Source: Escherichia phage ESCO13. From it: a DNA stretch of 64,000 nucleotides. Positions within the stretch are counted from its first letter, which is position 1. Each line of letters begins with the position of its first letter. Below the pieces are notes generated by a model that worked only from the letters and a program-made list of their open reading frames with translations, was not told the DNA's origin and did no database searches. Positions 25,328 through 25,536 of the stretch are shown piece after piece. The DNA lies in the sequence record NC_047770.1; one strand, given 5' to 3'. The translations under genes and the position numbers were made by a program.

Positions 25328-25536
25328 ACGTTCATCAAGTGTGGTAACAGGGTCGTTGACTTTTGTTAAGAGGGGCTTGCACTGCGGTAGTGTTAGAGAC
25401 TACTTCTTCAGAGGTTAGCTACCAAAGAGGAAAAGGAATAGTCTCGGCTCAAGAACTTTTACGCTGAAAGTTGGGCTTGGTCTTAGAGAATGTAGCGGTT
25501 CTCTACAATCGTCAGCGTCTCTGTTACCACATTTAT

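Follow-up and report, generated by a model that had tools for sequence, protein, structure and literature searches.

Bacterial tRNA operons typically begin with 5' leaders that are short, unstructured and quickly degraded. In phage T4, the transcript of the tRNA region gives rise to two small RNAs, named C and D, whose function is unknown after decades (PMC3014915). T4 rnaC, or species 1, comprises 139 nt and rnaD, or species 2, comprises 119 nt, and both are also annotated in L033. The purpose of such non-tRNA RNAs in phage tRNA clusters constitutes an old question, which the element described here could address.

In this work, we analyzed a DNA stretch of 64 kb (hereafter the window, i.e., the whole stretch at its full length) belonging to Phapecoctavirus (Stephanstirmvirinae), in which the region of interest was found by sequence search to be 100% identical to many phAPEC8-like E. 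coli myoviruses. These are common coliphages, often isolated for therapy, and the stretch is annotated in them as empty or as a spurious small protein; the element is thus unannotated, or misannotated as a hypothetical protein, in GenBank. Further, our literature search retrieved no publication on it and no Phapecoctavirus or phAPEC8 transcriptome. We hold with high confidence that the element is real, conserved and acts at the RNA level. Judging from sequence comparison and modelled folding, we assign a probability of roughly one half to the reading that it is a previously undescribed, genus-specific structured RNA, namely the ~203-nt leader of the first tRNA unit, putatively released as a stable molecule with a function of its own. 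It would thereby add to phage biology a new, covariation-supported RNA family of about 200 nt, expressed from an early promoter.

The tRNA array and its transcription units

The array, located at 25537-27549, comprises 12 tRNA genes, 10 of them detected by ARAGORN and 2 more, missed by that program, by Rfam (25923-26009 and 26235-26319); it is followed by a terminator at 27665-27683 and, 1.5 kb downstream of the array, by the large terminase gene (29053-31128). The first tRNA gene (25537-25611, + strand) was recognized by ARAGORN, by the Rfam tRNA model (64.5 bits) and by alignment. It has a CAU anticodon and an acceptor stem (GGCCC...GGGCCA) resembling that of ileX; most records label it as tRNA-Met, and it is probably an AUA-reading tRNA-Ile. 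T4-like phages have a tRNA ~96-97% identical to this gene, which may have passed between phage groups; the L061 lineage lacks the tRNA-Arg and has an aberrant CAU tRNA in place of the first tRNA. With regard to the two genes added by Rfam, the one at 25923-26009 is tRNA-Ser(UGA)-like, with a tRNA-Sec match of 35.7 bits that lies below threshold and a tRNA-Ser annotation in PsgM04F, and the one at 26235-26319 is a tRNA-Tyr(GUA) (Rfam tRNA, 39 bits). The latter is followed at 26329-26414 by an 86-nt tRNA called Asn (anticodon GUU), also present in ECGD1 and BME3, which displays a long variable arm; this shape is that of class II (Ser, Leu and Tyr tRNAs) and is unusual in tRNA-Asn, and the gene could be a duplicate of tRNA-Tyr(GUA) with an altered anticodon.

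The leader element lies within this cluster and on the tRNA strand (+). Upstream of it, a sigma-70-type promoter of the first tRNA unit was found at 25298-25327 on the + strand (TTGACA-18-TAGGAT with an extended TG; score 10/12 with the TG), with the -35 box TTGACA at 25298-25303, the TG at 25319-25320 and the -10 box TAGGAT at 25322-25327. All alleles share one -35 box, and their -10 box reads TAGGAT, TAAGAT or TAGGCT. The motif TATTGACA-N17-19-TANNNT was found 4 times in the window versus 0.26 expected, one of them being the array's second promoter, and the leader promoter belongs to the phage's own early type. Since this promoter is directly upstream, the element opens the first tRNA transcription unit, at its predicted 5' end. 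The sequence AUCAAGUGUGG, which begins 7-8 nt past the -10 box, is invariant in all alleles. We infer a start at A25334, and the predicted leader RNA would run on the + strand from this base to the expected RNase P site (25334-25536, ~203 nt); with such a start, the 5' arm of the closing helix begins 3 nt from the predicted 5' end. No terminator was found between the promoter and the first tRNA, and the leader is presumably co-transcribed with it; RNase P cleavage at 25536/25537 would then leave a 2-nt 3' overhang on the leader. The other array promoters, P2 and P3, have almost no leader: the -10 box of promoter P2 ends at 25914 with its tRNA at 25923, and that of promoter P3 ends at 26883 with its tRNA at 26895, which places these tRNAs 8 and 11 nt behind the -10 boxes.

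Two further features of the upstream flank were recorded. A 9-bp hairpin at 25305-25331 (ACGTATCCT / AGGATACGT) extends across the leader's promoter, its 3' arm holding the -10 box; it shows two compensated changes in phiWec179 and is lost in allele E (L055), and could be an operator or the 3' hairpin of the upstream mRNA. An 11-nt perfect complementarity of the upstream ORF end (25266-25276) with a segment of the leader's P5 arm (25400-25410) was taken as chance, because it is not kept in phiWec179.

Closing stem and interior fold

The preliminary description had reported GTGGTAACAG (25341-25350) and CTGTTACCAC (25521-25530) as exact reverse complements whose pairing ends 6 nt before the first tRNA, and so they are. 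A 10-nt seed alone is within chance, since the window holds 82 inverted pairs with such a seed within 250 nt; the inverted repeat at 25337-25371 / 25500-25534, with 35-nt arms, is the longest of the 82. Its outermost helix, P1, consists of 16 bp, including two G-U pairs, between the 5' arm at 25337-25352 (which includes GTGGTAACAG) and the 3' arm at 25519-25534 (which includes CTGTTACCAC), both on the + strand, and in this full extent ends 2 nt before the tRNA start at 25537. It is followed inwards by a U/U mismatch, the 7-bp helix P1b (25354-25360 / 25511-25517, +), a small internal loop and the 4-bp helix P2 (25363-25366 / 25505-25508, +).

Among 16 distinct sequences, the P1 5' arm is invariant except for two singleton changes, and the 3' arm shows one singleton change, C to U, with which the pair stays as G-U; in P1b and P2, the pairs C-G 25360/25511 and U-A 25364/25507 are lost in alleles B to F. 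Counted over the 27 pairs of the closing stem, 21 never vary, none changes on both sides, 1 has a singleton change kept as G-U, and 2 are broken by singletons. P1 proper is identical in all six alleles and is as conserved as the tRNAs, compared with ~60% DNA identity in the adjacent ORF and ~74% in the interior. Such invariance is evidence neither for nor against pairing, and, at the level of sequence comparison, points to a constraint on the sequence itself; with no covariation in the closing helix, its pairing is argued from energy and invariance. The closing duplex (16 bp, a 1x1 mismatch and 7 bp) amounts to a near-continuous 24 bp, where ~20 bp or more are expected of an RNase III processing stem, and as modelled would be shaped like a target of that enzyme.

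The + strand of 25335-25536 folds with a minimum free energy of -76.8 kcal/mol, versus -52.7 +/- 4.3 kcal/mol for shuffled sequences (z = -5.6; 0 of 200 shuffles as low), and the - strand of the same region reaches -53.7 only; with the covariance model R1, the + strand likewise obtains 245 bits and the - strand 33. The fold spans ~200 nt with seven helices, which are arranged around an outer three-way junction (P2/P3/P7) and an inner four-way junction (P3/P4/P5/P6). In a MAFFT alignment of the 16 distinct sequences, representing six alleles, standard pairs are found in 96.4% of cells, versus 39-44% when partners are slid by 1-3 columns; 15 pairs (85 cells) changed on both sides, a covariation score that 0 of 500 shuffles reach, and an earlier set of 9 sequences gave the same picture. 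Every internal helix has at least one compensated pair except P5c (3 bp), P5a' (2 bp) and P6a. The window allele also contains 14 G-U pairs, functional on the + strand only, and these pairs together with the strand asymmetry point to an RNA of the + strand. The covariation check that the preliminary description had proposed thus divides the structure in two: the further internal pairings it had noticed in the enclosed stretch are upheld by fold and covariation in P3 to P7, and the 10-bp closing helix, being invariant, shows no covariation. Its view of the element as a structured leader holds, given the conserved sigma-70 promoter upstream and the interior pairings kept by compensatory changes in six alleles.

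Helix P3 (25372-25377 / 25479-25484, +), the closing helix of the inner four-way junction, has two positions with three pair types apiece (G-U/C-G/U-A and G-U/G-C/A-U); because of this, we rejected an RNAalifold solution for the 16 sequences in which a local hairpin replaces P2 and P3. P4 (25379-25393, +) is a 5-bp hairpin with a variable loop, two pairs changed on both sides and 100% of cells paired. The P5 arm (25396-25445, +) is composed of P5a, P5b and P5c and contains three compensatory pairs, one in P5a and two in P5b; its apical GGUUAGCUACC (25413-25423) is identical in 15 of the 16 sequences, with one position differing in D_L043. P6 (25446-25477, +) is a nearly invariant hairpin formed by P6a, an AGA bulge (25452-25454), P6b and a CGC loop, in which alleles E and F show covariation at two P6b pairs (A-U to U-A; A-U/U-A to G-C). 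Conversely, the stem of the P7 hairpin (25485-25504, +) is hypervariable, with 6 of 7 pairs changed on both sides, and the core of its loop, GUAGC (25492-25496), is invariant. This core is complementary to GCUAC at 25418-25422 in the P5c apex, identical in all 16 sequences, with duplex energies of -7.1, -14.2 and -12.0 kcal/mol in three alleles. A contact between the P7 loop and the P5c apex, either a pseudoknot or a kissing interaction, may be hypothesized from these sequences; these invariant sequences offer no covariation, and UAGCUA is palindromic. Unpaired interior positions are as variable as paired ones (34% vs 30%), and as the loops vary as often as the stems, specific contact sites are only suggestive.

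Other spacers of the array also fold better than their shuffles (z = -4.2, -3.2 and -2.45). The 196-nt spacer at 25689-25884, behind the tRNA-Arg, has z = -4.2 and an 11+7-bp closing helix of its own; in phiWec179 it is conserved at ~80%, with a centre that diverges and one pair that is compensated, and it may be a second structured RNA, at the position that rnaD occupies after tRNA-Arg in T4. The spacer at 26105-26234 (z = -3.2) is closed by an inverted repeat (26104-26122 / 26201-26219) that is the second longest of the window, and that at 26581-26853 (z = -2.45) opens with a long hairpin at ~26581-26662. No paralogy was found between the leader element and the other structured spacers.

The absence of an ORF noted in the preliminary description is effectively right, as the stretch contains only ORFs of 34 and 37 aa with TTG starts. 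A 'hypothetical protein' of 34-35 aa is annotated as a CDS in WPEC1, WPEC2, WPEC4, WPEC6, ETEC-TG, EP57 and PsgM04F, and would make the stretch a small protein gene, a reading that we practically dismiss: its start codon is TTG, its substitutions track base-pairing and not codon positions, and in REC, ukendt and UP17, relatives with 98.6-99% identity, the 34-aa frame is shifted and broken by an extra nucleotide at 25387, in the P4 loop. No conserved reading frame over the leader was found among relatives, and the neighbouring small ORFs matched only families of unknown function in Pfam and PHROGs.

A scan against Rfam 15 (4227 models, including 6S, Y RNA-like, riboswitches, ribozymes, ROOL and GOLLD), also suggested by the preliminary description, yielded no family at or above the gathering threshold; at E <= 10, 25330-25536 gave only two meaningless 11.6-bit lncRNA matches, and alleles B and C gave nothing. 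These results bear on the possibility of a regulatory transcription leader, e.g., a riboswitch-like sensor, an attenuator, or a put-/EAR-like processive antitermination RNA. The element is promoter-proximal, has a complex junction fold closed by P1 and heads an untranslated operon, as such a leader might; nevertheless, no aptamer or leader family is matched even at the permissive cutoff, and an expression platform is lacking, with no terminator-like site in 25334-25537 and no ORF after it. In addition, the next promoter is only two tRNAs and one spacer away, and the other transcription units have no such leader. Accordingly, we regard regulation of this kind as quite unlikely.

Distribution, alleles and recombination

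By blastn, the element was found in 69 phage records, ~63 of them nearly identical and 6 at ~80% identity. Records whose large terminase is at least 90% identical amount to 63 + 6, an agreement with the 69 that holds in totals only, and none of the 62 records with 80-90% terminase identity has the element. It is present in one copy in the window and in one copy per related locus. Pattern scans added one copy from IMG/VR and two from metagenomes, and three additional alleles came from Logan and ENA contigs reached through homologues of the upstream ORF, so that six alleles and 16 distinct sequences from phage genomes and metagenomes are at hand. In the Justusliebigvirus phages ECGD1 and BME3, a different tRNA-Met begins 7 nt past the orthologue of the 82-aa upstream ORF, and covariance model searches detected no homologue in ECGD1 (also with filters off), in Aeromonas phage 4L372XY or in the rV5-like UPEC06. 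Neither did blastn give any match in E. coli genomes and plasmids. When IMG/VR was scanned for the apical 16-mer, all matches were chance ones within tail-fibre coding repeats, and a P6-based pattern likewise matched only by chance in representative bacterial genomes and IMG/VR. As far as sequence searches indicate, the distribution is narrow, comprising one genus (Phapecoctavirus) and excluding its sister genus Justusliebigvirus. On a separate matter, the records of Campylobacter phage B15, Klebsiella phage ZCKP1 and Acinetobacter phage vB_AbaM_ABPW7 are ~99-100% identical to E. coli Phapecoctavirus, and Pseudomonas phage PsgM04F has a phiWec179-type allele; the host labels of these four records look doubtful.

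Genes of HNH homing endonucleases are polymorphic in related arrays (L045, 2026-2733; L055, 2017-2583, also in L058; L062, from ~2997 on; L063, from ~1707 on); a NUMOD4/HNH_3 gene lies further downstream in another lineage, and in nepoznato an HNH endonuclease gene splits the large terminase, a further sign of active homing elements in the genus. The leader directly abuts the tRNA 5' end (25537), but not universally: in L045, L055 and L058 the HNH gene (phrog_14913) sits exactly between the last bases of the leader and the tRNA. The leader is intact where the gene intervenes, and its allele in these three loci also occurs without the HNH gene.

Allele C (L028) differs from phiWec179 (L001) at 30 of 2763 aligned bases, of which the leader interior accounts for 24, the adjacent tRNA for 3 and other places for the remaining 3; 27 of the 30 differences fall in a patch (L001 coordinates 2542-2771) centred on the homing-endonuclease insertion site. 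Since the patch is centred on the leader/tRNA junction, as expected from homing co-conversion, this local divergence represents recombinational mosaicism, a situation reminiscent of SegB in the T4 tRNA region (PMC2330249). An 'arms-race hypervariability' of the L028 allele was considered and set aside, given that homing-endonuclease-associated gene conversion explains it better. Alleles related by recombination represent few independent events, which is to be kept in mind with the six alleles above.

This recombinational setting, a hotspot of homing-endonuclease insertion and patchy gene conversion, would also suit a functionless relic, such as decayed tRNAs or the scar of a MITE or homing-endonuclease cassette, or else a signal at the DNA level. 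Terminal inverted repeats are present, as such a scar would have, and the 5' arm has CAAGTGTGGT in common with the start of the ECGD1 tRNA-Leu. We nonetheless consider a relic or DNA signal very unlikely indeed: the 15 compensated pairs and the 14 + strand-only G-U pairs speak for an RNA fold under selection, each genome has one copy only, and no Rfam tRNA model matches the leader element. Nor did we find significant similarity to the array tRNAs or to the ECGD1 region (score 20 vs a shuffle mean of 18.5); with such shuffle-level local alignment scores, we discarded decayed tRNAs and the ECGD1 tRNA-Met/tRNA-Leu segment as its source.

Putative function and comparison with known systems

With these features, a possible course of events can be outlined. 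Host RNA polymerase would start at the strong sigma-70 promoter, probably at A25334, and the interior folds into two nested junctions with the five arms P3 to P7, as covariation shows. Once the 3' arm is made, the 16+7+4-bp stem would pair the 5' end of the transcript with the bases upstream of the tRNA, as expected from its energy and invariance. RNase P cleavage at 25536/25537 would then necessarily free the leader, and, with its ends locked in the stem, the released RNA should be long-lived; RNase III may also cut the 24-bp duplex and, given its proximity to the RNase P site as modelled, might do so before RNase P. It speaks against this outline that a helix end only 2 nt away from the RNase P cut could be an obstacle to the enzyme instead of an aid. 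The preliminary description had offered a processing platform for RNase P or RNase E as one interpretation: the RNase P cut stands, being required anyway, and nothing points to RNase E. Invariant apical elements, namely the UAGCU loop, the GUAGC loop (P7) and, in P6, an AGA bulge and a CGC loop, are candidate contact sites for protein or RNA.

The alternative that weighs most on this outline is a purely cis-acting platform for processing or insulation. Here, the modelled stem would be an RNase III site or an insulator presenting the tRNA to RNase P, the interior would guard the untranslated leader from Rho and RNase E, and what is excised would itself be functionless. The duplex is as long and as nearly continuous as RNase III substrates typically are, only 2 nt separate it from the tRNA, and RNase III takes part in the maturation of the 5' end of the T4 tRNA cluster transcript. 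Moreover, all array spacers beat their shuffles, two others have long-range closing helices, and the loops are not clearly more conserved than the stems; that other spacers are structured too also counts against an own function of the leader, as a compact fold may be a general need of untranslated spacers. On the other hand, promoters P2 and P3 and the whole sister genus make tRNAs without such a leader, so a 200-nt leader is not needed for tRNA production, which argues against a purely processing role. A stuffer needs no invariant apical sequences inside hypervariable stems, and the leader is unchanged where the 0.7-kb HNH gene precedes the tRNA, a weak argument because that insertion looks recent. 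Taken together, these observations weaken the notion of a processing platform only, which we deem possible but somewhat improbable. Should the element turn out to be a processing stem only, it would still be a clean natural tRNA leader with paired 5' and 3' ends.

Within the preferred reading, that of a released, stable RNA with its own function, a more specific proposal can be made from the sequence features, and we put it forward tentatively, as rather doubtful in this particular form: the leader would belong to a new class of trans-acting phage RNAs, made early from a host-type promoter and freed from the pre-tRNA. Its apical elements (among them UAGCUA in P5c and GUAGC in P7) would bind a host or phage factor as a decoy or scaffold, or else would serve a pseudoknotted core or self-association, with a benefit unrelated to tRNA supply. 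The system is tractable: it can draw on E. coli K-12 as host, on six alleles found in nature and on a sister genus without the element.

Compared with described systems, the leader is like ROOL and GOLLD in being phage-borne, highly structured and located beside tRNA genes, and in having no established biochemical function. ROOL and GOLLD are 2-4 times larger than the leader and are found in other bacterial and phage groups; unlike members of either family, the leader has no match to their Rfam models. With ordinary tRNA operon leaders removed by RNase P, it shares the location between promoter and first tRNA and an RNase P cut that must free it. It differs from them in its ~200 nt and seven helices, with a fold under selection, whereas the leaders of promoters P2 and P3 measure a few nucleotides. 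RNase III processing stems, such as the flanks of 16S and 23S rRNA and the early-mRNA sites of phage T7, similarly consist of a long-range, near-perfect duplex of about two helical turns beside an RNA needing maturation; however, the leader encloses no rRNA, its stem is invariant, more than RNase III recognition would need by itself, and its cleavage is a prediction.

As regards the T4 RNAs C and D, these also come from a tRNA-region transcript. They sit 3' of the tRNA-Arg and are shorter, whereas the leader is 5', directly behind the promoter, and its accumulation as an RNA is only predicted; the architectures differ as well, as T4 rnaC ends in a tRNA-like T arm, unlike the leader. Comparison of T4 rnaC and rnaD with the leader by blastn (word size 7) returned only tRNA-Arg similarity, covariance model R1 with filters off reached at most 11 bits in the T4 tRNA region, and a homology to the T4 tRNA-Gln leader, likewise considered, was not found. 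The leader thus resembles the T4 RNAs C and D in context and not in ancestry, and is best described as their apparent analogue, rather than their homologue, in the tRNA cluster of another phage group.
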